From: Escherichia phage vB_EcoM_NBG2
Strand: one strand, 5' to 3'
Length of the DNA: 64,000 bases
Sequence record: NC_054925.1
Shown here: in pieces, positions 2,428 through 54,423 of the stretch
Numbering within the stretch: the first letter of the stretch is position 1
How the letters are laid out: each line of letters opens with the position of its first letter
The notes under the pieces: generated by a model
Databases searched by the model: none
Told to the model about the DNA's origin: nothing
The model's input: the letters and a program-made list of their open reading frames with translations, nothing else
Position numbers and translations under genes: made by a program

Positions 2428-2458
2428 AATTATACCACATCCTTGTGGTAAAGTAAAC
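2428..2458 (-). promoter_or_regulatory. early promoter (GTTTAC -35, 18-nt spacer, TGGTATAAT -10) for rIIA.1-rIIA
   Basis: minus strand reads GTTTACTTTACCACAAGGATGTGGTATAAT; identical 32-bp module at 46366-46397. Confidence 0.6.
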
Positions 2459-4278
2459 TACTGGCTCATCCATTCTTTACGAAGGTCAGCATTATCTCCC
2501 ATGAGCATTTCAAAAAGCTCTTTCCAATTCTCAGGAAGTTTAACAACATCATATACTGGATTTTGAATCATCTCACGATATTCAGATTTTTCCAAAGAGC
2601 CAAGTCCTTTAATATAACGGATGCTATGTTTAGGTAGAGCATCTTTAGCACTCTCATATTCAGCGACTGTAAAAAACCATTCTTGTTTTTTACCGACCTG
2701 AGCGATGATTACAGGAGTTTTGACAAAGCGAATTCTTCCTTGCTCAAACAATTCTGGCCAATTACTAAAAAACCCGAGCAGAGAAGGATAAATGCTTCCT
2801 AGACCATCATGGTCAGCATCAGTCATAATAGCAATATTATGATAATTCAAGTTTTCAGCTTTTTCACCGAGAACTAATCCAGTGATTGCGCAAATATCAA
2901 ATAGTTCTTTGTTTTTAAGCATATCAGCATATGACATACCCCAGCTATTAAGAACTTTACCGCGCAATGGATAACCACCATGAAGTTCTTTATCACGAAC
3001 ATCAATAAGATATCCGATAGCCGAATCACCCTCAGTCAAGAAAAGAGTAGTGTCAGCATCTTTACCACAAAGATTCGCTTTGATATGTTTATGAACCTTA
3101 GCTTTAGAAGCCTTTTTAGCTGCTTTAGTTTCTGCTGCTTTTTCTGCCGCCAATTTACGAGCCAAAGCAGCTTCAATAATCGGCATTAGAATTGCTTCAT
3201 TATTTAGAATAGCGCGTGAAATCTTTTTAGCATCAAGCTGAATATGACTACGAATTTCGCCAAATGGAGAAGTCAAACGCTCTTTAGTTTGAGAATCAAA
3301 TCGCATGTTTTTCATATCACGAACAAACATAACGATAGTCAAACATTCTTTAACGCGTGCTTTAGTTACATCAATTTTGAACTTGCGTTTGATTTGTGGA
3401 ATAAGGTCTTCACAAATATCATCCATAACACAGTCAATGTGATGGCCACCATTCTTAGTGTGAATGTTATTGACGTATGTTAATTGACGAAAACCATCCG
3501 GTGAACGACCAACCGCAATAGAACAATTTTCTTGTTCTTGAACGATAGCATGCTCATCATATTGGCGTGCATATTTCTTAAAATTGCCCTGAACCTTTTT
3601 ACCATTAAAGGTAAATTGAATATCAGGATAAACTACTGCAAGTGTCTGGAGACGATCTAGTGTAATGTCAAGATAAACTTGGGACAGCTCATTAGTTTCA
3701 AATGACATAAAATCAGGAATGAAAGTAACACGAGTTCCTTTCCATTTTCCAGGAATAGTTTCCCATGATTTATTTTCCATGCCATTTGAACAACGAACTA
3801 CAATATTATTTTGACCATCACCAGTTTCACCGACAAACATCACAGAAAAAATGTTTGTCAAACTAGAACCAACACCATTCATACCGCCAGTGACGCGTTC
3901 TTTATCATCACCGAAGTTACCACCTGCTTTTGGAATAGTCCATGCAGCAACAGGACCAGGAATTTCTTCACCGGTAGGTGTTTTAACCATCGCCTGCGGA
4001 ATACCACGACCGTTATCTTCAACTGTTACTTGATTGTTTTTAATAGTAACATTAATTTTATTTGCGAATTTAAACTTAGTACGAATACCTTCATCTACTG
4101 AGTTATCGATAATTTCATCAATAAGCTTAACAAGACCAGGTACATACTGAACACTTTCCCATTTACCAAACAGAAAGCGCTCATGCATTTCATTAGCAGA
4201 AGAGCCAATATACATGCCACTACGCTTTTTGATATGCTCAATATCGCTCAGAATTTTAATTTCATTCTTAATCATCAC
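2458..4278 (-). CDS. 39: DNA topoisomerase II large subunit, uninterrupted (GHKL ATPase + TOPRIM region)
   Basis: 606 aa continuous ORF; N-terminal ATPase-like region and C-terminal MTDADHDGLGS TOPRIM-like segment in one frame; start may be 4278 or 4275 (tandem ATG). Confidence 0.85.
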   Translation of the reverse strand: MMIKNEIKILSDIEHIKKRSGMYIGSSANEMHERFLFGKWESVQYVPGLVKLIDEIIDNSVDEGIRTKFKFANKINVTIKNNQVTVEDNGRGIPQAMVKTPTGEEIPGPVAAWTIPKAGGNFGDDKERVTGGMNGVGSSLTNIFSVMFVGETGDGQNNIVVRCSNGMENKSWETIPGKWKGTRVTFIPDFMSFETNELSQVYLDITLDRLQTLAVVYPDIQFTFNGKKVQGNFKKYARQYDEHAIVQEQENCSIAVGRSPDGFRQLTYVNNIHTKNGGHHIDCVMDDICEDLIPQIKRKFKIDVTKARVKECLTIVMFVRDMKNMRFDSQTKERLTSPFGEIRSHIQLDAKKISRAILNNEAILMPIIEAALARKLAAEKAAETKAAKKASKAKVHKHIKANLCGKDADTTLFLTEGDSAIGYLIDVRDKELHGGYPLRGKVLNSWGMSYADMLKNKELFDICAITGLVLGEKAENLNYHNIAIMTDADHDGLGSIYPSLLGFFSNWPELFEQGRIRFVKTPVIIAQVGKKQEWFFTVAEYESAKDALPKHSIRYIKGLGSLEKSEYREMIQNPVYDVVKLPENWKELFEMLMGDNADLRKEWMSQ

Positions 4279-4327
4279 TTATCCTCGTTTGGTTTCGGGA
4301 ATATTATACTCCGGTAATCATAAAGCT

Positions 4328-4346
4328 AAAGGCCCGAAGGCCTTTT
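4328..4346 (-). terminator. GC-stem hairpin with UUCG tetraloop in mRNA
   Basis: plus GGCC-CGAA-GGCC flanked by A/T runs, between 39.1-like gene and gene 39. Confidence 0.5.
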
Positions 4347-4614
4347 ATTTAAAACGAATAGTTGAATCCTTAAAGAACAGCCCAGAACATACTGTTCCTT
4401 CTACTTTCTGCCCGGTAGGTCCAATAGCACGAAATCCAGTATGCTGGAAATCATTTTCAGAGCAACCGAACCAGTTATATCCAGTGATTTCAATATTAGT
4501 AAACCCACTTGAAGACAAAACTTTGGTTGCATTATCAGCATCAGTACATCCTACTAAAGATACTGCTAATACTAATGCCGCGATAGAACGATTAACATAT
4601 TTCATAATTTTCAC
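4345..4614 (-). CDS. putative lipoprotein
   Basis: 89 aa; N-terminal hydrophobic segment ending LVGC (lipobox-like). Confidence 0.5.
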   Translation of the reverse strand: MKIMKYVNRSIAALVLAVSLVGCTDADNATKVLSSSGFTNIEITGYNWFGCSENDFQHTGFRAIGPTGQKVEGTVCSGLFFKDSTIRFK

Positions 4615-5577: not shown

Positions 5578-5795
5578 TAATAAATTTCCTTCCAGTAAGT
5601 TGTGCCATCTTCAGTGATTTCACGGAATACACCATAAATTGGTTGTTTATCACCGACTTTCTCATATACATAAACCGAAGTCAAGTGAGTAAACTTGATA
5701 GTGTGTTCCTTTTGAACTACTACCAAATCTGGATCGAATAATACATCTTCAAATTCATCATTAGTGCAATTCTGAACAATTTTACGTTTCATCAT
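5577..5795 (-). CDS. hypothetical protein
   Basis: 72 aa ORF, start overlaps stop of upstream gene. Confidence 0.45.
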
Positions 5796-5966
5796 AATTT
5801 CCTCATTAATTGAACATTGGAGCGATGCGTTTCAGAAGAGTATCAGCGCACCTTTAACGAATTATCCATTTTATTCTTCAAGTTGTTTTCTGTATCAGTA
5901 GTTGATATTGATATAGTACCATAATCAACTACTGATGTATATAGTTTTATGAAAAAATTTTAAACT

Positions 5967-6458
5967 TTATGCATAGCGAGCTTTGCTGTAGTGTTTAATC
6001 CAACTTTCAGGAATGACTTTGTATGTTCCTAAAAATACCGCGTTGTATAACTTAACGCCATCTTCAATCCACTGGTCAGTAATGTATGCACACATAGCGC
6101 GAGTACGCTGAGGAAGTGGTTGTCCACCTTCGGTAAATTCAAACTCATAAGGAGCAACGAACTTGATAGCTTGACCGAGTTTCCACTTAAAGTCTACACC
6201 TACATGCGAAGTATCAATCGTTTCAATTCCTTTAGCAGGAACAGCTTTCAAAAACGCAGGCTCAAGAAATTTCCATCGAACATAACCAAACTGGGGCTTA
6301 GACATTCCATCTTTAGCAATGATACGTACTTTTACTTCAGAATCTTCATCTTTAACACCGTGTTTAAGCTGAATGCTTACAACTTCGACCAATTTTCCTG
6401 CTGCTTTAGAACGGGATTTATCAGATACACGAGCAATTTCACCGATATTAATATTCAT
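5967..6458 (-). CDS. motB: MotB-like protein (named by position and size only)
   Basis: 163 aa; position between 39 region and dexA as in T4; early promoter upstream; C-terminal motif shared with next ORF. Confidence 0.45.
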   Translation of the reverse strand: MNINIGEIARVSDKSRSKAAGKLVEVVSIQLKHGVKDEDSEVKVRIIAKDGMSKPQFGYVRWKFLEPAFLKAVPAKGIETIDTSHVGVDFKWKLGQAIKFVAPYEFEFTEGGQPLPQRTRAMCAYITDQWIEDGVKLYNAVFLGTYKVIPESWIKHYSKARYA

Positions 6459-6532: not shown

Positions 6533-7080
6533 TAGCTTACACGAACATTAATCACTGCGCTACGAGGAACTACAGAGTATTCTCCAGCATGAACTACGTT
6601 CAGAAGTTCAACGCCATCTTCAATCCACTGGTCTGTTACCCAACCACAGATAGGATTATCAAAAGGACGACGGATAGACACAGCAGCACACAACAGGTCT
6701 GTAGGGTCTTGTTCTTCAACTTCTTGGAACAGGATGAACTCATCTTCATAAACCAGGTTTTTCTTTATTTTGTTATTATCTAACCGGCGACCGTGGATGA
6801 CGTAAGATTTGTCAAACCACTCACTTTTGGCAAATTCTTCAACAATAAATTCGCCTTCGCCAAAAACATCAGTCAGAGTTTTATGACCAGAAATCAAGGC
6901 ATTAGTTTTAATTTCAGGTTCAACCAATTTGTAGGTTTTGCCGATTTCAATAGCGGTAGTCATAGTAGTTTCCTTAATTTCCAGTGGTTTAACAGGGCAT
7001 ACATAAGTGCTTACAACATCAAAATCAATCAGTTTAGTTACCGGATTTGGTATGTATTCAGGATTATAATTAAATTTCAT
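6532..7080 (-). CDS. hypothetical protein, paralog of 5967-6458
   Basis: 182 aa; C-terminal VTDQWIEDGVELLN matches ITDQWIEDGVKLYN of neighbour. Confidence 0.5.
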   Translation of the reverse strand: MKFNYNPEYIPNPVTKLIDFDVVSTYVCPVKPLEIKETTMTTAIEIGKTYKLVEPEIKTNALISGHKTLTDVFGEGEFIVEEFAKSEWFDKSYVIHGRRLDNNKIKKNLVYEDEFILFQEVEEQDPTDLLCAAVSIRRPFDNPICGWVTDQWIEDGVELLNVVHAGEYSVVPRSAVINVRVS

Positions 7081-7082
7081 AA

Positions 7083-7583
7083 TTATCTCATTTCAATAAA
7101 ATCTACAAGTTCAGCATGCGATTTGCGGAACATTACTTGGTGCCCGCCAATGATAACTTCATCTTCAGGAACTTCGTATACAGCGAGATAAAATCCTTTA
7201 GAAGATAGTTCTTCCCGCTCTTCTCGTGTGAACCATCTCATCATATCATACTCACTAGCGAAAGCAAAATGATAAAGAGCTATAAACCATCCTGGAATAT
7301 GATATTCTACTCCAACATAATCCTTCTTGAACTTAGTATTAATTACTATATTAGCGTTTTTAACTAATAATTTATCTTCGTGTGGTAAAGGAATTCTTTT
7401 ATTATTATCGCTATGATGCATAAAATTAGGTCTGTCATAACCTACGTGTAATAGCCACTCTTCGCTCCATGAATCTATTATACTCCTGTACGGCGTTATT
7501 TGAACACAAAGATTTCGACGTATTGTTATAGCATCTTCATAATCAAGAATACTAAACGATGATTCAACACGATAAATTTTCAT
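7083..7583 (-). CDS. hypothetical protein
   Basis: Track ORF 7083-7622 trimmed to internal ATG (M14) because the longer start lies inside the upstream promoter; GAGGA SD. Confidence 0.5.
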   Translation of the reverse strand: MKIYRVESSFSILDYEDAITIRRNLCVQITPYRSIIDSWSEEWLLHVGYDRPNFMHHSDNNKRIPLPHEDKLLVKNANIVINTKFKKDYVGVEYHIPGWFIALYHFAFASEYDMMRWFTREEREELSSKGFYLAVYEVPEDEVIIGGHQVMFRKSHAELVDFIEMR

Positions 7584-7610
7584 TTTATTATCCTCAGTAG
7601 CTATGGTGTT

Positions 7611-7640
7611 ATAATACCACAACTAACCGAGGAAGTAAAC
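7611..7640 (-). promoter_or_regulatory. early promoter
   Basis: GTTTAC, 18 nt, TATTAT. Confidence 0.5.
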
Positions 7641-18059: not shown

Positions 18060-18119
18060 GATAATCTCCTCAGCAGTTTATGTTTATATAGTATCTCAAT
18101 TTCCAACAAAAGTAAACAG

Positions 18120-18561: not shown

Positions 18562-18590
18562 AACAATCTCCTCATTTAACCAACAAGACT

Positions 18591-18620
18591 ACTATACCAT
18601 AGTCTTGTCAGCTTGTAAAC
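18591..18620 (-). promoter_or_regulatory. early promoter upstream of dmd
   Basis: GTTTAC, 18 nt, TGGTATAGT. Confidence 0.55.
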
Positions 18621-23644: not shown

Positions 23645-24025
23645 TCACTTAGTCAAATTTTTTACACATGAATTATAAGAATTTACTACATACTCCATCG
23701 GAGCATTTTTACCAGTACGCCATTGATAATTATTAGCCCAATTAGCCCAAAGTTCGGCACAGTAACTTTCAATTTTTTCTTCACGCGTAATCACATCTGA
23801 ATTACGATATGCTTGTGCAGATTCATCTGGACGAATAGCTTCGTCAAAATTCGCCTGCATTTGTTCTACTGTCTGTTTTGGAGCTTCTTTATAACACTTA
23901 ACATTAGGATTATAAAATTTGCTTGAACAGTTTACAATTTTTCCTACATCAGATTGATTTACTACCGGTCCTTGAGCTACACAACCAGTAAGACCCAATG
24001 CAATAACCAAAATAGCGATTTTCAT
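23645..24025 (-). CDS. putative lipoprotein (imm.1 position)
   Basis: Track ORF starts on TTG inside promoter; trimmed to ATG (M5) with GGAGAAT SD; signal peptide with LTGC lipobox. Confidence 0.5.
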   Translation of the reverse strand: MKIAILVIALGLTGCVAQGPVVNQSDVGKIVNCSSKFYNPNVKCYKEAPKQTVEQMQANFDEAIRPDESAQAYRNSDVITREEKIESYCAELWANWANNYQWRTGKNAPMEYVVNSYNSCVKNLTK

Positions 24026-24059
24026 TTCATTCTCCAAATCCGCATCAGTTGATAGTTGT

Positions 24060-24089
24060 ATAGTACCATGGAAGAACAGGGATGTAAAC
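24060..24089 (-). promoter_or_regulatory. early promoter upstream of imm.1-like gene
   Basis: GTTTAC, 18 nt, TGGTACTAT; part of a ~60-bp module repeated at 50748-50811. Confidence 0.55.
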
Positions 24090-24176
24090 AGTTTTGTGAA
24101 AAATTTTTAATGAATTCCAGAGGTCCAGAATCATCTATTTTTCCTAAGTATAGATTTATATTACTTGTATGAAAAA

Positions 24177-26960: not shown

Positions 26961-26978
26961 AAGGGGCCGAAGCCCCTT
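26961..26978 (-). terminator. hairpin (UUCG loop in mRNA) between regA and gene 43
   Basis: AAGGGGC-CGAA-GCCCCTT. Confidence 0.5.
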
Positions 26979-26980
26979 GC

Positions 26981-27349
26981 TTAATTACCAATCGTATATT
27001 TGGGAACGAGTTTCCATTCATGTTTTTGTTTAAAAGAAATAACTCGGAAGTTATTAGTTAAATCTTTCATAAAAGTTCTTTGACCCGGGGCAATTTCAAT
27101 CAGTCCCCAATCTTCTAACAGCCATGCAATCGAATCACGACGAACTTCATCTTCTTCTGTCATTTCAACCTGGCGACCATCCATACGAAGCATTTCTTTA
27201 AAATGAACGATATAGTATAGTCCTTTTTTCTGGAGAATATGACAGGATTGATACAGAACTTTATCTTTATTATTAGCAATTCCCATACGAGTCAGAGTTT
27301 CTTTAACTTTCAAAAAATCTTCAGGTTTTTTAAGAGTAATTTCAATCAT
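26981..27349 (-). CDS. regA: translational repressor RegA
   Basis: 122 aa; size and position between 62 and 43. Confidence 0.8.
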   Translation of the reverse strand: MIEITLKKPEDFLKVKETLTRMGIANNKDKVLYQSCHILQKKGLYYIVHFKEMLRMDGRQVEMTEEDEVRRDSIAWLLEDWGLIEIAPGQRTFMKDLTNNFRVISFKQKHEWKLVPKYTIGN

Positions 27350-27915: not shown

Positions 27916-28875
27916 TCACTTCCACTGCATTTCGCATGCCAATTGAATGAAAAGATATGCTAAATGTAATTCCGTATTAGCCGCAATTCCGTGATACTGG
28001 TTATTTTCACCAACAATTTCATACATACGAATAATACTTTGCGGAGTTACGCGTGTATAGATTTCTTCGGCAAGTTTACCTACGAACCACGAATAATCAG
28101 CTGCATATTTTGGTGCTAAAGCTCTGAGCTGTTTAACATCTTTATTTTTGAGAGACTCAAGAACATCATCAATAGCACCACGATCGTTAGTAACCAGTGA
28201 TAAAATACCAGCATCCAAAACACCTTTAGATGAATAACTATCGAGCTCGCCAATAGTTTTACGAAAATCAGGAAAATTCTTTTTAACCAAAGCTGCTACA
28301 ACTTTCATATCAGCTATAGCAATTCCTTCATGCTTACAGATTTCAGTCAATCGACGAATCATCTGCTTCATCATTTCAATTTTATCTTCATCGGTCGGTT
28401 GACCGAATGTAATAACTCGACAGCGTGACTGAAGTGGTTTAATAATACCATCAATATTGTTAGCAGTAATAATAATACTACAGTTTGAACTATAAGCTTC
28501 CATAAAGGAACGAAGATGTCGCTGAGACTCTGCTAATCCTGAACGGTCAAATTCATCAATGACGATTACTTTTTGACGACCATCAAATGAAGCTGCACTA
28601 GCAAAATTAGTCAAAGGACCACGAACGAAATCAATTTTACAATCTGACCCATTCACAAACATCATATCAGCATTTACGTCATGACACAATGCTTTTGCTA
28701 CGGTTGTTTTACCTGTTCCTGGAGAAGGAGAATGAAGAATAATATGTGGAATCTTACCTTTACTTGTAATAGATTTAAAGGTTTCTTTATCAAAGGCGGG
28801 AAGAATACATTCATCGATAGTAGATGGACGATATTTCTGTTCAAGAATGTGTTCTTTTTCATTTACAGTAATCAT
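27916..28875 (-). CDS. 44: clamp loader large subunit (gene 44, AAA+)
   Basis: Track ORF starts on TTG; trimmed to ATG (M6), 319 aa; Walker A GTGKTT, Walker B VIVIDEFD. Confidence 0.9.
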
Positions 28876-28905
28876 AATTTCCTCATTCAAGTTTTAATGT
28901 AAATT

Positions 28906-28927
28906 ATAGAGGGCCGAAGCCCTCTAT
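28906..28927 (-). terminator. hairpin (UUCG loop) between genes 45 and 44
   Basis: 9-bp stem ATAGAGGGC-CGAA-GCCCTCTAT. Confidence 0.5.
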
Positions 28928-29613
28928 TAAAAGTCGTGGGTAGAATCAGCTTCAAGAGCTACTACATAATTCGCGTGTTCACCTTCAAATTTAGCAGCAC
29001 CTTGTTTACCTTTTGCCCAGAGCAGAAGTTTATAATTTCCTGGTTGCATTTTCATATTTGCCATATTGATAATGAAATTAAATGTATTTTCACCATCATA
29101 ATCACCAAGAGTCAAAGAATATTTAACACGGGTCAAAGCAGAATCTTCTACTTTATTAAAACCGTTAATTACGATTTTACCTTCTTTTACTGTGATAGCG
29201 ATTGTATCAATCTGCAGACCACGAGATACACGCAACAGTTGTTGAAGGTCTTCAGCTTTAATTTCAGTAACAACAGATGCTACCGGGAATGGAATTGGTT
29301 TATTAGGAGCAACTACTGTACTCGGATCGGCTGCTGGCCAAAAAATTGTTGAGCGTGCATCAGCAATTTTAATATTTCCATCTTCTGACTGGGAAATTTC
29401 TGCATCATCATTAACTAGAGACAGAATACCGAGAAAACCGTTCAAATCGTAAATTGCTACATCAAAATCAATAGTGTCAGAAATATTTGCTTCCGCATAA
29501 GTGGTACCATTAACCGCGCGAGTCATAATAAATTGACCGGATTTAAGCATAATACCGGAGTTAATAGTAGCGAAATTTTTAAGCAGAGCAGTAGTATCTT
29601 TAGACAGTTTCAT
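28927..29613 (-). CDS. 45: sliding clamp (gene 45)
   Basis: 228 aa; size and position as T4 gp45; MotA-type middle promoter upstream. Confidence 0.85.
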   Translation of the reverse strand: MKLSKDTTALLKNFATINSGIMLKSGQFIMTRAVNGTTYAEANISDTIDFDVAIYDLNGFLGILSLVNDDAEISQSEDGNIKIADARSTIFWPAADPSTVVAPNKPIPFPVASVVTEIKAEDLQQLLRVSRGLQIDTIAITVKEGKIVINGFNKVEDSALTRVKYSLTLGDYDGENTFNFIINMANMKMQPGNYKLLLWAKGKQGAAKFEGEHANYVVALEADSTHDF

Positions 29614-34218: not shown

Positions 34219-34236
34219 AAAGGGCCGAAGCCCTTT
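34219..34236 (-). terminator. hairpin (UUCG loop) downstream of alpha-gt
   Basis: AAAGGGC-CGAA-GCCCTTT. Confidence 0.5.
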
Positions 34237-35437
34237 ATTTTGTAATAATGTCAAACTGTTCTTTAAAACAGAAGCTTGAATCTTGGTGCTGATACAAAAA
34301 TTCATATGCTTTTTCTCGCTCACGGTCATAAAGAGCTCGGTCAGATGACAGTTCTTTAATACGTTCAAACGTTGATTCCATATCATTTTCATCAAACCAA
34401 ATGATACCGCTATCATGCGAGGTCAAAGGAGTATTATCAACACGGAATTTTAAATTTTCGCCAGTAGATTTCCAAAATACCGGAATTGTTCCACATGCAC
34501 CAAGCTCGAGATGAGTATATTCTAAAGAACGTTGTAGATATTTTTTGTCCAACTTACTCAGCTGATAACCAAATCCGGATTTACTCATGCGTTCAAGCAT
34601 TTCGCTATTTACATAACGATCAAGAATTTGCGTTGGCAAATTAGGAGCAATTTTAATTTGGTCTACTTGATGAAGACGATAATACTCGTATGGAATTCCT
34701 TTTTCTTTAATAGGAATGAACGCTGGAGAACGTTCCAGACCTTCCATAATAGTACTTAGTCCTGCAGGTTTAAGATGTTTTTCATGAAAATCAAACATCT
34801 GATAAAAACCTTTCCATGTAGTCGTACGACCAATCCAACGGTTAACATTCATGTTAATTTCAGAAACATCTTTCCAGTAGGTTGACCGAACCTTCGCAAT
34901 ATCCATAGGAGGCTGAAAGTTATATACTGTCGGTGCTTCTTCAATATCATCAAACAGAGAAACAGTTTCTGGATACCATTCTTTCATCAGAACTTTATTA
35001 AAATCACCATTATCAGAATGACTAAAAATAACATCAGCTCGACGAACAGTTTCTTCTAATCCCAAATTTCGACGCAAAGAAAGAGAAGAATGGTCATGTT
35101 GATAAACTACAACACGAACAGAAGGTTTAATGTTATCAATAATTTTTTTATAGTTATTAATAGTGTCTTCTTCAACCGAAGTAGCAGGAACTGAATTGAT
35201 AATTAGAATATCACAATCATTTACCAGCTTAAGTGTTTTATCATATTCTTTTGCCAATAAAACCGGAATTGAAAATGATTTATAATCATGCGCGCAATTA
35301 CGAGTAAATGATTTATCTTTAGCATAAACCAAAGTTACTTCATGACCATTCTTAATAAACCAATCACGTTGCTCAAGAGAAAATTTAGTTACACCACAAC
35401 CTTCAAGACCTCGAGCCATAAAAATACATACTTTCAT
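34235..35437 (-). CDS. agt: DNA alpha-glucosyltransferase
   Basis: 400 aa; size and position as T4 alpha-gt; N-terminal glycine-rich GLEGCGVTKF. Confidence 0.8.
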   Translation of the reverse strand: MKVCIFMARGLEGCGVTKFSLEQRDWFIKNGHEVTLVYAKDKSFTRNCAHDYKSFSIPVLLAKEYDKTLKLVNDCDILIINSVPATSVEEDTINNYKKIIDNIKPSVRVVVYQHDHSSLSLRRNLGLEETVRRADVIFSHSDNGDFNKVLMKEWYPETVSLFDDIEEAPTVYNFQPPMDIAKVRSTYWKDVSEINMNVNRWIGRTTTWKGFYQMFDFHEKHLKPAGLSTIMEGLERSPAFIPIKEKGIPYEYYRLHQVDQIKIAPNLPTQILDRYVNSEMLERMSKSGFGYQLSKLDKKYLQRSLEYTHLELGACGTIPVFWKSTGENLKFRVDNTPLTSHDSGIIWFDENDMESTFERIKELSSDRALYDREREKAYEFLYQHQDSSFCFKEQFDIITK

Positions 35438-37820: not shown

Positions 37821-37858
37821 ACATTATCCTCAATTACATTAAAATTTTATTATCCAAA

Positions 37859-37874
37859 AAGGGCCGAAGCCCTT
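37859..37874 (-). terminator. hairpin (UUCG loop)
   Basis: AAGGGC-CGAA-GCCCTT. Confidence 0.45.
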
Positions 37875-38073
37875 AGCTAAACTGTTTGGCACCCTTCCAG
37901 CCTTCGTACATCATTGCAGCTGATATTAATATTGCTCCTGCGCATTTTGAGTATTTGTGATTCCAAAACCAGTTCAGAAAAACTTCGTCATCAATACCTT
38001 GGGCTATCATATTTTCAAAGAACTGACGACGAGCTTCGGCAATTCGTTGCGATAATTTAGATTCAGGATTCAT
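37873..38073 (-). CDS. hypothetical protein
   Basis: 66 aa ORF. Confidence 0.45.
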   Translation of the reverse strand: MNPESKLSQRIAEARRQFFENMIAQGIDDEVFLNWFWNHKYSKCAGAILISAAMMYEGWKGAKQFS

Positions 38074-45335: not shown

Positions 45336-46337
45336 TTACTTAATTAACTGTAAAGCTTGTTCAAGACGATCCAGGCGATTAACAGATTCTTCCCAAATCC
45401 TTTTAGCCTGCTCATATTCTTTCTGTGCTTTATTAGAAATTTCTAGAACTTCTTTATAAGCTTTTTCTAATGCAATAACTTCTGGACGAATTTCTATCGG
45501 TTCAGGTGAATCGTCAAGACATTCCATTAGTTCCTCAAGGGTAGTTTCTTCTTTAGGAGTATTCACAATTTCATCACATTTTTGCTGGTAAATTTCTTTA
45601 TCAGTCGGTGAGTACGCACACTTTACTTCACGAAGACTAACTACAATTTTATATCCTTCCCAGCCGCATATATTCTTAAAAGGATATGTATGAATATTTT
45701 CTACTGTTTCCATACAAAGTAATGCGGTCTCTAATTGACGAGTTATAGTACTAGCAATTGAGAAAAATTTATTAATGTTCTTTTGGTTAGCTTCTGGTGT
45801 AAAAAATCTGTAATTAATAAAAATAGCTACTTTGTTTTTATCAAGCTCATATTCTTCTGCTATAATCATATCATCAGCTAAGGGATGAATTGTACGATAA
45901 TCACCATAACATAATTTAGAAGCTGATTTTAGAATCTGTCCTTTGAAAAGTCTGAAATTACTAATCCAACGACGAGTAAAAATATTCTCGGTGTCTTCTT
46001 TGACATTAAGATGATAAGAATTAACATCACCGAACCAATTATATCCTACTACATCTTTGGTTCGTTTAATTTCTTTCCCAAAATTACCAAGAATATCCCG
46101 ATTAACCAAATATGAAAGAAGACGAGACTCTTTAAAGGCTTTCTTGATAACATCTTTATCTACACGGCTAGAAATTTTACGAATTTCATGAATAAATTTA
46201 ACAGAAGAAACAATACTTGCGTCAACACTATTGAGCCATTGATTGATAATGGAAATAACGCTATTTTGGCCAAACAACGGTATAGCTTTATCATCAATAA
46301 CGCTATTGAATGATTTGATATATTCGTTACGAGTCAT
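45336..46337 (-). CDS. hypothetical protein, member of tandem paralog array
   Basis: Trimmed to M11 (GAGGAG SD); 333 aa; motif FKGQILKSASKLCYGDY; coiled-coil tail. Confidence 0.55.
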   Translation of the reverse strand: MTRNEYIKSFNSVIDDKAIPLFGQNSVISIINQWLNSVDASIVSSVKFIHEIRKISSRVDKDVIKKAFKESRLLSYLVNRDILGNFGKEIKRTKDVVGYNWFGDVNSYHLNVKEDTENIFTRRWISNFRLFKGQILKSASKLCYGDYRTIHPLADDMIIAEEYELDKNKVAIFINYRFFTPEANQKNINKFFSIASTITRQLETALLCMETVENIHTYPFKNICGWEGYKIVVSLREVKCAYSPTDKEIYQQKCDEIVNTPKEETTLEELMECLDDSPEPIEIRPEVIALEKAYKEVLEISNKAQKEYEQAKRIWEESVNRLDRLEQALQLIK

Positions 46338-46365
46338 ATTAATCTCCTCAGTAGAAAGTAAGAAC

Positions 46366-46395
46366 ATTATACCACATCCTTGTGGTAAAGTAAAC
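46366..46395 (-). promoter_or_regulatory. early promoter (copy of 2428-2458 module)
   Basis: identical 32-bp sequence. Confidence 0.6.
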
Positions 46396-47423
46396 TAGTT
46401 CAGTGCATTTAGTGCATTGTTCAGTTTAGAACGTTGCTTCGTGAGATTTTTGACTTTTTCTTGAGCTTTTTCTAACATCTTTTCAGCTTCTAACACTTCA
46501 TTAGTTGCTTTAACGAGTTCATCATCTACTGCCTTGATAGACTTCTCAATCGCATCAGCATGCCATTTTTCAACAGGTTTAAGACTCGGATTTTCAACAG
46601 GAAGAAAATTCACTTTATTGAATTTCCATGCATCCTTATTACCTGAACTATACATCCAAAATTTAGGATCGTTTGATGAGTAATTGGATAAATTTAAATT
46701 TAAGTTATCTTGCACTTCCTGCTTTTTCTCTTGCGTGACTTCATCCTTTCTCAAAAAATCGTATTTAAATGAAACGATCATATCAAGTTCATATGTTGTT
46801 GTGTCTAATTTAAATCGTTCGAAATGCTTTGAAATCTTAGACTGAACAGCGGCAACAACATCCATATACTTAAATGCTTCTGTCAACTGCGATTTAAGGC
46901 ATTCACAAATTGAAAGAGAATTTTTTGTATTAGGTTTAAAGCTAATTCGTGCAGTTCTATTATTTTCTTTTAATGGTCTTACTTCCATCTGAAGAGTATA
47001 ACCATCAAATTTCAGATTCTTTAAGTTAATATCAGAACCTTTTAATCGACTCGCAGTTGATAAAATTTGCTTTAATTGTCTACGGAACAGAGCAATAAAT
47101 CTCCATTCAATACGATAATGATTTGGATTGAAAAATCCAGATGATAAATCAACCTTACTCTGACCAACGCCTTGAACAAATAGAGGATTTTTATAATCAA
47201 TAGTTTTACAGAAATCGGTGAGCTGCTCACGAGCAGTCATTTGCGTAATATACCCTGCTTTACTAAAATTACGCACCCATTCACTGCTATTCTTATACTT
47301 AAAGTGATGAATAGTACGATTAACTTTATCAAGGTCTAAATTATTTTCACACAAAAATGTCATAACATCACGAGTATCGCTGGCATTACGAACCATATCT
47401 TCAATTTGAGAACGAGTTTTCAT
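46395..47423 (-). CDS. hypothetical protein, member of tandem paralog array
   Basis: 342 aa; motif FRRQLKQILSTASRLKGSD; coiled-coil tail. Confidence 0.55.
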   Translation of the reverse strand: MKTRSQIEDMVRNASDTRDVMTFLCENNLDLDKVNRTIHHFKYKNSSEWVRNFSKAGYITQMTAREQLTDFCKTIDYKNPLFVQGVGQSKVDLSSGFFNPNHYRIEWRFIALFRRQLKQILSTASRLKGSDINLKNLKFDGYTLQMEVRPLKENNRTARISFKPNTKNSLSICECLKSQLTEAFKYMDVVAAVQSKISKHFERFKLDTTTYELDMIVSFKYDFLRKDEVTQEKKQEVQDNLNLNLSNYSSNDPKFWMYSSGNKDAWKFNKVNFLPVENPSLKPVEKWHADAIEKSIKAVDDELVKATNEVLEAEKMLEKAQEKVKNLTKQRSKLNNALNALN

Positions 47424-48786: not shown

Positions 48787-49314
48787 TTATGCGAGTACCG
48801 TCTTTAACCGTTCTTCAAACTTCCGAAGAGTATTTTGGCGTTCAGCTCTTTGCTTTTTGTAAGTTTCAATACGCTCTGAAATGAGAGTGTATCGTTCATT
48901 TACTGATTCTTTCATAAAATCAGGAATTTCACGAGAAGCTTTAATCTCATCAAATTTATCAATAACAGCTTGCTCTTCAGCAATTAAGTTATCATACATT
49001 AAAATATCTTTCTTGATGAACTCAATATCTTCTTGAGTTACACGAGATAATTTAGATACTTTATCCTTTTTGTACTGTTCGTTAGTATCACGAGACCAGT
49101 GCAATGTACGATTTTTATTCGTATTCTTGTAAATTTCTACAATACCAATCTCATCGATAATAACGATCCAATTCCAACGGGATTTGTAAATTTGTCCTCC
49201 ATCAACAGTGATTTCACCTCCGATTGAGATGTCATTAAAGAACTTACTTTGTGCTTCAGATTTAAATTTACCATCGTTGTAATTTACCAAGTTGAAAATA
49301 TCTTTAGCGTTCAT
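48787..49314 (-). CDS. hypothetical protein with coiled-coil C-terminus
   Basis: 175 aa; GGAGGAA SD; early promoter upstream. Confidence 0.5.
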   Translation of the reverse strand: MNAKDIFNLVNYNDGKFKSEAQSKFFNDISIGGEITVDGGQIYKSRWNWIVIIDEIGIVEIYKNTNKNRTLHWSRDTNEQYKKDKVSKLSRVTQEDIEFIKKDILMYDNLIAEEQAVIDKFDEIKASREIPDFMKESVNERYTLISERIETYKKQRAERQNTLRKFEERLKTVLA

Positions 49315-49342
49315 TTTGTGTTCCTCCGTAGTTGATAGTTGT

Positions 49343-49372
49343 ATAGTACCACAGAGGAACAGTCTTGTAAAC
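49343..49372 (-). promoter_or_regulatory. early promoter
   Basis: GTTTAC, 18 nt, TGGTACTAT. Confidence 0.5.
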
Positions 49373-49778: not shown

Positions 49779-50747
49779 TTATTTCAGAAGAGTAACCTCA
49801 GCAATTTCTTCCCAACCGTTTTTGTCGGTCATAATAAAGTCAGCAAGATAAAGAGCAGTACGCAGTGAAACATTGCGTAAACGATTAACATTGACTTTCA
49901 TCCATGATAATGCTTTATAAGTTTCTTCATCAGAAAGACCGCGCTTTTGCATCATGTCAGTTGAAAGAATAACATCTTCAACCCTGACCATAATTTCTTC
50001 ATTAGTGTGAACACCCAAATCTAAATAAACCGAGCGGGACACTAATGCTTGTAAATGTGGAGCAAGTTTAGTACCGCGGTCTAATTCGCGGTCAATGTCA
50101 ACGTTTGTGATAAAAACAATCGTTCCTTTAAATTCAAACTCACGGTCAATGCCTTTTTCTTCTAAGTAAGAAGATGCAGTGCTCCAGCAGACTTTACGGG
50201 TCTCTCCAGTGTCCAGAGCAGCTTTTAGAAGATTAAGAATGTCCATATCAGAGAAAACATCCACATCATCAATCAAAAGGACAGAGTTCTCTTCACGATT
50301 ATACCAAAGCTGCTCATAAAGACCAATACCAGAGATTTTACCATTAATGCTTTTATATTCAATGTATCCAATATCGTTTGCTTTATTTAAAGCTTTATCT
50401 AAAGAATACGTTTTACCAATACCTGCTGCGCCAGAGATAATTAATGAACGAATATTTCCATTAATAATACCATTCGTCATCATTCCCATAACATTAAATC
50501 TTTTATTAATGCGGGTTTTCATATCTTCATATGATTCTTTAACTTCTTCAACTTTTACACCATCATATGAAATATCTGATTTGTAAACCCAAACACCACG
50601 ACGTTTACCGTCAATTTCAACAAAAACTTTACCATCTCCTTGTGCATCTACCGGAGCATTATCTGGGAACCATTCGCCTAAGAGCTCAAAAGTTCCAGAG
50701 ATTTCTTTACCGAAGTAGATACCCTTATTGATAGTTACAGTTTTCAT
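49779..50747 (-). CDS. P-loop ATPase (AAA-like)
   Basis: Track ORF trimmed to M57 (longer start runs through promoter and hairpin); 322 aa; Walker A GAAGIGKT, Walker B LLIDDVD. Confidence 0.6.
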   Translation of the reverse strand: MKTVTINKGIYFGKEISGTFELLGEWFPDNAPVDAQGDGKVFVEIDGKRRGVWVYKSDISYDGVKVEEVKESYEDMKTRINKRFNVMGMMTNGIINGNIRSLIISGAAGIGKTYSLDKALNKANDIGYIEYKSINGKISGIGLYEQLWYNREENSVLLIDDVDVFSDMDILNLLKAALDTGETRKVCWSTASSYLEEKGIDREFEFKGTIVFITNVDIDRELDRGTKLAPHLQALVSRSVYLDLGVHTNEEIMVRVEDVILSTDMMQKRGLSDEETYKALSWMKVNVNRLRNVSLRTALYLADFIMTDKNGWEEIAEVTLLK

Positions 50748-50781
50748 TTTATTCTCCAAATCCGTATCAGTTGATAGTTGT

Positions 50782-50811
50782 ATAGTACCATAAAGCTTTA
50801 TGCTTGTAAAC
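50782..50811 (-). promoter_or_regulatory. early promoter upstream of P-loop ATPase gene
   Basis: GTTTAC, 18 nt, TGGTACTAT. Confidence 0.55.
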
Positions 50812-50841
50812 AGTTTTGTGAAAAATTTTTGAAATAAAAAA

Positions 50842-50859
50842 GGGAGCCCGAAGGCTCCC
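50842..50859 (-). terminator. hairpin (UUCG loop) preceding early promoter
   Basis: GGGAGCC-CGAA-GGCTCCC. Confidence 0.5.
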
Positions 50860-50862
50860 TTA

Positions 50863-53431: not shown

Positions 53432-53566
53432 AATTACATACTCCTTTGAATAATATCAATAATGTTGTTCACCAGATTATAAGTAAACATTGGGTAATTA
53501 TATTGAATCATCACATACACAACAAACAAAACTTTCATTCTCTTCTCCTTGACCGTTGACAAGATT

Positions 53567-53596
53567 ACTATACCATAACCTTGTCAACTTGTAAAC
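53567..53596 (-). promoter_or_regulatory. early promoter
   Basis: GTTTAC, 18 nt, TGGTATAGT. Confidence 0.5.
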
Positions 53597-54198: not shown

Positions 54199-54350
54199 GC
54201 CATATGAGTTGCAGCTTCATCACACATATCATAACGTTTCTTAAGAAGTTCTACAAGTTCTTCACTAGTAACTTCATCCATGTCGACGAAAAAATCACCA
54301 TTAATGATGACGTAGATATTTCCTTCTTGATTAAGTGCTTCAATTTTCAT
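54162..54350 (-). CDS. hypothetical protein
   Basis: Trimmed to M16 with GAGGAG SD; 62 aa. Confidence 0.4.
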
Positions 54351-54378
54351 GATGTTCTCCTCTTTATCCGATAGTTGT

Positions 54379-54408
54379 ATAGTATCACAGCTCAAATGGA
54401 AAGTAAAC
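54379..54408 (-). promoter_or_regulatory. early promoter
   Basis: GTTTAC, 18 nt, TGATACTAT. Confidence 0.5.
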
Positions 54409-54423
54409 CGGTAAAATGAAAAA

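Follow-up and report, generated by a model that had tools for sequence, protein, structure and literature searches.

The DNA considered here, a 64-kb window (64,000 nucleotides) of Escherichia phage vB_EcoM_NBG2 (NC_054925.1), is that of a Tequatrovirus (T4-like), is 96-98.5% identical to Tequatrovirus genomes, begins at rIIA, and has all its genes on the minus strand, as are all features of the two loci described next. At the first locus, the fused genes 39 and 60 for the topoisomerase II large subunit (2458-4278, about 605 aa) are followed by rIIA.1 (2200-2403; 67 aa, phrog_1683) and then by rIIA (12-2189); at the second, nrdC.5 (46395-47423; 342 aa, phrog_2351) lies upstream of nrdC.4 (45336-46337; 333 aa, phrog_1435). 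Each junction carries the same 32-bp module, ATTATACCACATCCTTGTGGTAAAGTAAACTA, in the same orientation, which we read as the core of an early promoter serving rIIA.1 in one case (2429-2460, on the grounds of sequence match, T4 orthology and public annotation) and nrdC.4 in the other (46366-46397). In the first copy, the -35 GTTTAC spans 2453-2458, the TG of the extended -10 is at 2436-2437 and the -10 TATAAT at 2429-2434; the rIIA.1 leader (2401-2428), with a start predicted near 2422 from the spacing to the -10, contains the Shine-Dalgarno (SD) sequence GAGGA (2411-2415) and ends in the ATG (2401-2403). The corresponding elements of the second copy are a -35 at 46390-46395, a -10 at 46366-46371 and the nrdC.4 leader (46335-46365) with its SD GAGGAG (46344-46349) and ATG (46335-46337), so that in both the SD lies 13-16 nt past the -10 and the ATG another 6-7 nt on. 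Both modules also include the end of the preceding gene: gene 39/60 ends in a TAG stop (2458-2460) that takes in the G of the first -35, and the TAG of nrdC.5 (46395-46397) likewise overlaps the second -35.

Read along the minus strand, the repeat is TAG-TTTAC-TTTACCACAAGGATGTGG-TATAAT, and it is on this strand, not the one read in a preliminary description of the sequence, that the promoter lies. That description had rightly reported an identical module twice, 44 kb apart, with GAGGA/GGAG ribosome-binding sites downstream, although its first copy starts at 2429 rather than at 2428. The two exact copies are alone in the 64-kb window, where no further copy occurs at up to three mismatches; the self-comparison proposed earlier as a check identifies the 32-mer as the longest exact direct repeat of the window, and 100 shuffles yield no match to it. 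Shared identity ends exactly at the promoter edges, the 30 nt on each side agreeing at just 4/30 and 6/30 positions, and segmental duplication was rejected as the origin of the two copies because these flanks are unrelated. Since all T4 early promoters have a long common consensus, which accounts for 16 of the 30 positions of the promoter core (GTTTAC, GTGG and TATAAT), the copies might be supposed identical by mere coincidence, but this has practically no chance of being right and is refuted by the shuffles together with a comparison of spacers. Across the 19 strict GTTTAC-N18-TAnnnT sites (171 pairs, 14 non-consensus spacer positions), the 32-mer pair agrees at 14/14 positions, the runner-up pair at 11/14 and a typical pair at 3-5, and the spacer of the 32-mer is found again in hundreds of genomes.

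The identification as T4-type early promoters, already made in the preliminary description, is borne out by consensus match, by orientation towards the downstream genes, by orthologues in T4 and by annotation in a public relative. Both copies have the form GTTTAC-N14-GTGG-TATAAT and match the T4 early pattern perfectly, TG and TATAAT included (consensus of Liebig and Ruger, 1989, and Miller et al., 2003, quoted in OL960581.1; review PMC2988021). The minus strand of the window has 19 occurrences of the strict pattern and the plus strand none, against a shuffle mean of 0.8, while a generic sigma-70 scan is uninformative in this AT-rich genome (88 and 99 sites versus about 87 in shuffles). No A/T-rich UP region is present in the 25-60 nt upstream of the -35 at either copy because coding sequence extends right up to it, the upstream sequences being gene ends (…GGATGAGCCAGTA and …GCACTGAACTA). 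An A/T tract, AAAAATTTTT, is present at other promoters of the window, for example those at 24089/50811; the UP element is typical of the T4 early promoter family, not obligatory. Both sites are annotated as T4 early promoters in OL960581.1 (SA20RB), which also labels 2423-2450 as a rho-independent terminator overlapping the promoter. The original T4 rIIA record has no promoter feature, a literature search returned no published start sites for rIIA.1 or nrdC.4, and a search with the motif string returned nothing relevant.

The same two promoters occupy the same gene junctions in T4, with the rIIA.1 copy identical and the nrdC.4 copy matching at 31/32 positions; the two T4 copies thus differ from each other at one base (A/G), a difference absent in vB_EcoM_NBG2. 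Site 1 is a perfect 32-mer in most Tequatrovirus records; one perfect place or more is present in 572 records. At site 2, which is polymorphic, about 158 records have the A form of this phage and about 354, T4 included, differ by one or two bases. This asymmetry would suit ongoing gene conversion, a concerted evolution in which recent homogenisation rather than shared selection keeps the copies identical, as would the ability of T4 to recombine at very short homologies (PMC9391042) and the scatter of the A form, which is found in phages whose nrdC.4 is closer to that of the window than T4's is, and in others whose nrdC.4 is further from it. Against it, there is no homology past 32 bp to seed conversion, the sole difference is a single transition that point mutation explains equally well, and both site variants coexist within Slopekvirus genomes. 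Mosaicism is rampant among T4-like phages, and the scattered distribution of the A form is therefore uninformative. All told, we consider homogenisation by conversion unlikely.

Beyond these two junctions, the core recurs downstream of alt, of gene 43 and of gene 41 (there ahead of sp), upstream of cef, and elsewhere. Its non-orthologous positions lie in Dhaka-, Slopek-, Karam- and Winklervirus-like genomes, the downstream protein families are unrelated, and across Tevenvirinae genera it fronts at least eight unrelated genes. The rIIA.1 locus of eight other genera has another ORF in place and no such promoter; the extra ORF lies between gene 39/60 and rIIA.1, and the related loci retrieved with the rIIA.1 protein were just five near-identical Tequatrovirus contigs. 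As a side observation, the unrelated 52-kb phage Rosemountvirus yarpen has a 29/31 match, for which convergence or chance is possible given the many phage promoters.

The suggestion that such repeats mediate recombination and gene shuffling recalls the promoter-early stem-loop cassettes (PeSLs), early promoters combined with a stem-loop that lies mostly between the boxes or overlaps the -10 (Arbiol et al., 2010, PMC2839356); in RB49/phi1, mini-circles bounded by PeSLs have been demonstrated (PMC2839356). If the two repeats were active cassettes of this kind, serving mainly for shuffling between their two positions, the recurrence of the core at non-orthologous junctions in other genera and the plasticity of the variable nrdC.1-11 block, in which site 2 sits, would be accommodated: nrdC.4-6 are collapsed into one ORF in phage Manna, and Dhaka- and Gapriverviruses lack nrdC.3. 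The direct repeats, however, enclose 44 kb with genes 41, 43, 44, 45, uvsX and others, and a crossover between them would be lethal because these replication genes would be deleted. Besides, they have only 32 bp in common, and in Manna the deletion has fused paralogous coding sequences rather than promoters. Indel or mini-circle evidence was found at neither 32-mer site, and no breakpoint of a Tequatrovirus rearrangement was seen to fall within the two copies. The comparison with relatives upholds the sharing of the core across loci and genera, whereas nothing found shows recombination between the two copies, and an active cassette role is improbable. The core's presence at non-orthologous loci would be compatible with exchange of promoter modules, without amounting to proof of it.

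Each repeat contains a dyad in its spacer, TACCACA-AGGA-TGTGGTA, with 7-bp arms and a 4-nt loop (minus strand; 2433-2450 and, identical in sequence and flagged as terminator-like, 46370-46387). The corresponding RNA, UACCACA-AGGA-UGUGGUA, folds with -8.2 kcal/mol (z about -2), and shuffling of the spacer only gives P=0.006 for the hairpin. As a terminator it is weak, with three G-C pairs and a poor U-tract, and no Rfam 15 family matches anywhere in the window at gathering score. The hairpin is maintained in evolution: the T4 variant of the spacer preserves the stem through a G.U pair, and the nrdC.4 promoter orthologues of Dhakavirus (CATCCA-AGGA-TGGATG) and Gaprivervirus keep a spacer hairpin (P=0.0075 and 0.0125) with other arm sequences and in another register. 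The AGGA loop is more conserved across enterobacterial genera than a pure hairpin requirement predicts.

What sets the hairpin-bearing promoters apart is their distance from the preceding gene. Pooled, the hairpin z-scores of all 19 promoters do not differ from those of random windows (p=0.21); the excess is significant only once they are split by distance to the upstream stop, a division chosen after the data were seen, whereupon the ten promoters within 6 nt of that stop average -10.2 in MFE and the nine with a gap of at least 11 nt average -2.6 (p=0.0016). The contrast is replicated at loci of other genera (25 versus 8 promoters, p=1e-4; 10 versus 6, p=0.004, when the 32-mer promoter type is left out), with p-values that are optimistic because these promoters are partly related to one another. 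In this window and in other genera alike, then, early promoters embed hairpins when they adjoin an upstream stop and not when they have intergenic room. The preliminary description had placed many promoters directly downstream of a GC hairpin, which overstates the case: a canonical hairpin with a T-run occurs within 75 nt upstream of 3 of the 19 (54408, 50811 and 14715), and neither 32-mer copy is among them. At both copies an upstream GC-hairpin terminator is absent because the stop of the upstream gene overlaps the -35, and the stem-loop present is the modest 7-bp hairpin between -35 and -10.

The dyad could also be viewed on DNA, as an operator (ACCACA-N4-TGTGGT) through which a dimeric phage or host protein switches some of the early promoters. 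Its half-sites are about one helical turn apart and overlap the polymerase binding site, and its arms stay the same in T4-like phages all the way from enterobacterial to marine ones, with differing loops (ATAG, GATA, GTAA), although in this cross-genus comparison the arms were fixed by the search patterns and the orthologous hairpins differ in register. An operator could, moreover, contribute to the shut-off of early promoters, which persists without ModA or AsiA by a mechanism that is unknown (review PMC2988021). The right arm, however, is already set by the extended -10 and TA, and a hairpin requirement alone therefore forces the left arm. Several further observations likewise weigh against a protein site: the nrdC.4 orthologue promoters of the two other genera keep the hairpin with changed arms and register, G.U pairing accommodates the two observed arm variants on the sense strand alone, other abutting promoters have unrelated dyads, and the correlation of the dyad with an abutting stop codon follows a transcript-level logic. 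We know of no cognate repressor for such a dyad in T4-type phages. Resemblances to the DnaA box, CRP, CpxR and MotA-box sites were dropped as poor matches. The comparative data speak for a hairpin rather than a protein site, and the operator reading appears very improbable.

Elsewhere in the window, stem-loops and early promoters are combined in other ways. The repeat of about 60 bp reported earlier at 24026-24089/50748-50811 is real (52/64 identical), but properly delimited it is a 90-nt early promoter cassette on the minus strand, at 24019-24108 and, upstream of nrdC.10 by position, at 50741-50830. The former copy consists, in order, of an A/T tract, the -35, a divergent 13-nt spacer island (24070-24082), the -10, the leader, the SD and the ATG; the two copies are identical at 78/90 positions and at 75/77 outside the island, and a terminator with a UUCG loop (50840-50861) lies immediately upstream of the latter. 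This pair, unlike the 32-mer pair, displays the conservation over about 100 bp that is a feature of PeSLs. At the early promoters of 7611-7640 and 49343-49372, the 5' arm of a dyad is the promoter spacer and its 3' arm the SD.

We therefore interpret the repeat, with a probability of about 0.8, as the core (-36 to -7) of two sigma-70-dependent T4-type early promoters that share a spacer hairpin and represent one allele. The first copy would drive rIIA.1 and rIIA, and the second nrdC.4, with host RNA polymerase recognising GTTTAC, the TG of the extended -10 and TATAAT and starting about 7 nt downstream; start sites and promoter strength are predictions from this anatomy. The resulting leaders would be short, about 20 nt, with a strong SD. 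Being flush with the upstream gene, to the point that its TAG stop and the -35 have a G in common, the promoters leave no room for a separate terminator. In read-through RNA the spacer dyad would fold into a 7-bp hairpin directly after the upstream stop codon, where its most likely job is that of a 3' element of the upstream unit, be it a weak attenuator, a pause site or a 3'-end stabiliser, while on DNA the same bases would act as the promoter of the next gene, a composite arrangement of promoter and stem-loop (PeSL) that is already known for T4-type phages. The two copies would be identical because both belong to the single allele GTTTAC-N3-ACCACA-AGGA-TGTGGTA, which recurs before unrelated genes across Tevenvirinae, probably owes its spread to recombination at short homologies, or to conversion, among early promoters, and was presumably retained by selection on boxes and hairpin.

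A more ambitious proposal would make ACCACA-AGGA-TGTGGT a distinct, laterally spreading Tevenvirinae promoter allele that is truly bifunctional (a strong promoter on DNA and an insulating 3' hairpin on the read-through RNA of packed genes), and would make an embedded hairpin of this kind obligatory for T4-type early promoters abutting an upstream gene; as a whole we regard it as distinctly doubtful. In a still bolder version, the dyad may be the operator of a factor that shuts off early transcription.

The 32-bp repeat is known phage biology and not a new element, and its finding is ordinary, amounting to the re-identification of two T4 early promoters whose combination with stem-loops has been described since 2010. 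For phage biologists there are nevertheless two useful by-products, the embedded-hairpin rule for early promoters tight against an upstream stop, and the reuse of one promoter core before at least eight unrelated genes. Both offer concrete mutable targets with which to ask if PeSL stem-loops act as insulators of transcription units and if loci exchange promoter modules.

Hairpins overlapping promoters are familiar from the T4 genes e, soc, 49 and I-TevI, where they mask the ribosome-binding site in read-through transcripts and not in those that start within the hairpin. The early promoters at 7611-7640 and 49343-49372 follow this scheme exactly. As at the 32-mer, the promoter lies within a dyad and RNAs initiated upstream or locally fold differently; the 32-mer hairpin, however, lies wholly upstream of the predicted start and does not touch the SD, and therefore could not act by masking translation. 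Lambda PL/OL1 (TACCACTGGCGGTGATA) is a promoter overlapped by an operator and, like the 32-mer, has a dyad beginning with TACCAC between -35 and -10 and overlapping the -10, but the spacing is unequal (18 vs 17 bp) and the right half-site is unlike. With T4 early promoters at large, the 32-mer shares GTTTAC at -36 to -31, the gTGG extended -10, TATAAT, the spacing, the early-gene strand and a position about 20 nt before SD and ATG; these usually have an A/T-rich UP region, which the 32-mer copies lack, and most have a variable spacer whereas that of the 32-mer is specific and widely reused. Finally, PeSLs are preferentially located in hyperplastic regions, beside indels that separate close relatives; measurements in RB49/phi1 (PMC2839356) cover both promoter and terminator activity, the latter, like mini-circle formation, demonstrated for RB49/phi1 elements alone. 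They are conserved over about 100 bp and have a stem of a G-run and a C-run, while the 32-mer pair is alike over 32 bp only and has a mixed AT/GC stem; those of PST/T4 have their stem-loops placed by the authors just upstream of the promoter, and not inside the spacer as here (Comeau et al., 2014, PMC4122927). The match to PeSLs proposed at the outset accordingly fails in length and holds in the union of an early promoter with a stem-loop: like PeSLs, the 32-mer sites are composites of upstream stop codon, early promoter, stem-loop, SD and ATG, and their promoters match the PST/T4 PeSL consensus TTTACW-N17-TAYWAT (Comeau et al., 2014).

Many Tequatrovirus (T4-like) genomes match the first 8 kb of the window and its 44-50 kb stretch at 96-98.5% identity, and rIIA lies at the window start, as on the T4 map. 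The preliminary description placed an identical early-promoter module of 32 bp at two sites 44 kb apart, and this stands except that the first copy begins at 2429, not 2428: the exact 32-mer occurs in two places, 2429-2460 (site 1) and 46366-46397 (site 2), with no additional copy at up to three mismatches in the window and none in 100 shuffles. Self-comparison, which had been proposed as a check, makes it the longest exact direct repeat of the 64 kb, beyond chance, and the flanks of its two copies are unrelated (identity 4/30 and 6/30 over the 30 nt on each side). An exact 24-nt repeat (6054-6077 and 6610-6633), within motB and a neighbouring motB-like paralogue, is the window's only long exact repeat in coding, not regulatory, sequence.

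Around both sites, all long ORFs run on the minus strand, and for this reason the plus-strand string originally reported has to be reverse-complemented, giving TAG TTTAC TTTACCACAAGGATGTGG TATAAT. The TAG terminates the upstream gene, which at site 1 is that of the fused gene 39/60 topoisomerase subunit and at site 2 is nrdC.5; the G of this stop codon supplies the first base of the T4 early -35 box, GTTTAC; the TG of an extended -10 lies within GTGG, the -10 is a perfect TATAAT in both copies, and its last base ends the repeat. Further downstream on the minus strand, GAGGA follows after 13 nt at site 1 and GAGGAG after 16 nt at site 2, each succeeded by an ATG (of rIIA.1 and nrdC.4, respectively), in keeping with the GAGGA/GGAG ribosome binding sites already described. 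Given this anatomy and a repeat that ends at the -10, the shared unit is therefore precisely the promoter core, and nothing more. A single uninterrupted ORF (2458-4278, minus strand; about 605 aa) encodes the topoisomerase large subunit and, like its counterparts in many relatives of T4, lacks T4's mobA/60.1 insertion, 39/60 split and gene 60 translational-bypass region.

The minus strand has 19 matches to the strict T4 early pattern, GTTTAC-N18-TAnnnT, and the plus strand has none; shuffles give a mean of 0.8. At the 14 non-consensus spacer positions, the 171 pairs formed by these 19 sites are usually identical at 3-5, the 32-mer pair at 14/14 and the runner-up, 18620/53596, at 11/14; judged by sequence, the sharing between the two 32-mer copies exceeds the early-promoter consensus. 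How initiation would proceed from them leans on established knowledge of sigma-70 and T4 promoters.

In T4, the sequence before rIIA.1 is identical to the 32-mer, and that before nrdC.4 differs from it by a single base, TTTGCC for TTTACC (the G form, NBG2 having the A form). The 32-mer or a close variant is found at 1346 places in 710 phage-database records, typically two per Tequatrovirus genome, and at the nrdC.4 site the NBG2 form is exact in about 158 records and 1-2 bases different in about 354. Both positions are annotated as 'similar to phage T4 early promoter' in OL960581.1, as is a rho-independent terminator (2423-2450) overlapping the site-1 early promoter. In the literature collection searched, no paper deals with either promoter or with the motif string. 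The finding is real, though the biology is already known, here in a close T4 relative.

A GC hairpin had been described directly upstream of many promoters; at the 32-mer promoters the stem-loop is found in the spacer instead, as the dyad TACCACA-AGGA-TGTGGTA, whose right arm comprises the extended -10 and the first two -10 bases. As RNA this dyad has -8.2 kcal/mol (z about -2; P=0.006 by spacer-only shuffling), with no Rfam match here, and the T4 A-to-G variant preserves the stem via a G.U pair. The orthologous nrdC.4 promoter carries CATCCA-AGGA-TGGATG in Dhakavirus (IME08, CUA3; P=0.0075) and a 7-bp stem with one U.G pair in Gaprivervirus (SP18, MN01, CJ20; P=0.0125); arms and register are other than in NBG2 and stability is similar, a pattern that would be expected if the fold matters, not a fixed protein-binding sequence. 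We infer a role for the hairpin.

The 19 window promoters were split into those with the -35 at most 6 nt from the upstream ORF stop (n=10) and those with at least 11 nt of intergenic room (n=9). Over -36..+9, the former have embedded hairpins with a mean minimum free energy of -10.2 kcal/mol (-8.2 kcal/mol or lower in 4/4 promoters with an overlapping TAG), and the latter have none (mean -2.6), three of the nine being preceded, at 16-31 nt, by a UUCG-loop terminator of their own. The Mann-Whitney p value is 0.0016, or 0.005 with related promoters collapsed, for a split picked after the data were seen and for promoters that are non-independent. The same split at loci fetched from other genera (L014-L203) gave p=1e-4 (25 vs 8), and p=0.004 (10 vs 6) without the focal promoter type, which had served to fetch them. 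Taken unsplit, the promoters show no difference in hairpin z-scores from random windows (p=0.21). The link between an abutting stop codon and an embedded hairpin is supportive, not conclusive.

Other minus-strand structures were seen. Early promoters at 7578-7640 and 49308-49372 are each enclosed in a very strong hairpin (-23.7 and -22.5 kcal/mol; z about -6.5 for both) whose 5' arm, located upstream of the start site, is the promoter spacer and whose 3' arm includes the gene's own Shine-Dalgarno (SD) sequence; the ribosome binding site would be hidden in read-through transcripts and free in locally started ones. T4 late promoters (e, soc, 49) are known to follow such a logic, whereas here it would act at early ones. 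The promoters at 18583-18620 and 53559-53596 (spacer identity 11/14) each contain a dyad of 14-15 bp that has TGGTA at its centre and overlaps the -10 (folding energies -18.9 and -18.3 kcal/mol; z about -5.5 for both), and the copy at 18620 abuts the gene 41 TAG. A family of GC-rich UUCG-loop hairpins, AAGGGCTTCGGCCCTT, occurs at 4328-4351, 26961-26984, 28908-28931, 34219-34242 and 37858-37881, with no strict early-pattern promoter after any of these five; beside a terminator at 4319-4344, OL960581.1 annotates a T4 middle-promoter-like site (4303-4326).

Viral contigs and a phage collection were scanned for GTTTAC-N3-ACCACA-(A/T/C)GGA(T/C/A)-GTGGTA. The core lies directly after alt (JS98-like and other genomes), after the DNA polymerase gene 43 (Slopekvirus KPV15, Karamvirus RZH and others), after gene 41 and before spackle (Winklervirus X20), before cef, and at no fewer than three additional junctions, the downstream proteins belonging to unrelated PHROG families; marine T4-like contigs have the same arms with loops ATAG, GATA and GTAA, for example between genes 59 and 32. 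At rIIA.1, eight other genera have a different preceding ORF and lack the core promoter, and NBG2 promoters at junctions that bear the core in other genera have different spacers; the ACCACA dyad is absent from the window's sp promoter (18088-18117) and from the promoter at 24060-24089. Found at non-matching junctions across genera, the core is therefore not inherited with a locus and, judged by this distribution, is a reusable promoter allele. The arms can be explained by convergence under the constraint of the fixed right arm, the AGGA loop conserved within enterobacterial genera cannot; exchange between promoters, with selection on boxes and hairpin, would account most simply for the distribution, and it is by this route that we infer the allele to have spread.

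Klebsiella phage KPV15 has two module promoters (loci L016 and L190), one of the A and one of the G form, which also have AAAAAGTT upstream and a leader of about 30 nt (TATCTTATCAACTACTGAGGAGAATAA) in common, as cassettes of about 70 nt ahead of unrelated genes, one of them cef. In Salmonella phage yarpen, an unrelated 52-kb Rosemountvirus (L019, 2501-2531, and L084), the intergenic GTATACTTTACCACAAGGAAGTGGTATAAT stands in a promoter-like position before a helicase gene; it matches the module at 29/31 bases and still forms a dyad, which could reflect convergence, transfer or chance.

A crossover between the two 32-mer copies would delete the intervening 44 kb with genes 41, 43, 44, 45 and uvsX, and they therefore cannot be a productive shuffling pair. 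In the one nearby rearrangement examined, that of Salmonella phage Manna, the junction lies in paralogous coding sequences, not promoters: a single 345-aa ORF (L209, 1715-2752), whose final 83 residues match nrdC.4, replaces nrdC.4, nrdC.5 and nrdC.6, apparently a deletion through recombination between paralogous genes, and the site-2 promoter is lost with them.

The near-identical block of about 60 bp reported at 24026-24089 and 50748-50811 does recur, with just 52/64 positions identical and as part of a 90-nt cassette (24019-24108 and 50741-50830; identity 78/90, or 75/77 outside a 13-nt spacer island) that extends from a AAAAATTTTT tract through -35, -10, leader and SD up to ATGAAAA. In a sub-family of early promoters, TGGTACTATACAACTATCAACT recurs across the -10 and the initial transcribed region (24047-24068, 49330-49351 and 50769-50790, and 54346-54416; three of the copies are exact over 22 nt), so reuse covers leaders as well as promoter cores. 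The translation-initiation region AATTAATGAGGAAATTATGAT, with SD and ATG, is identical on the minus strand at 2185-2205 (rIIA) and 5791-5811 (a gene near 5.8 kb), and over 19 nt at 28869-28887 (a gene near 28.9 kb).

Promoter-early stem-loop cassettes (PeSLs) are defined by an upstream stop codon, an A/T-rich region, a sigma-70-like early promoter, a stem-loop, an SD and an ATG (Arbiol et al., PMC2839356); their stem-loop is most often between the boxes or overlaps the -10, their promoter and terminator activities have been measured, and mini-circles arise from their recombination (PMC2839356). The module shares their promoter consensus and composite logic, which upholds its description as early promoters of this kind. 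Its stem-loop sits in the spacer, not upstream. Unlike PeSLs, it has neither the A/T-rich region nor conservation over about 100 bp; such extended conservation, absent in the 32-mer pair, is present in the 90-nt cassette pair.
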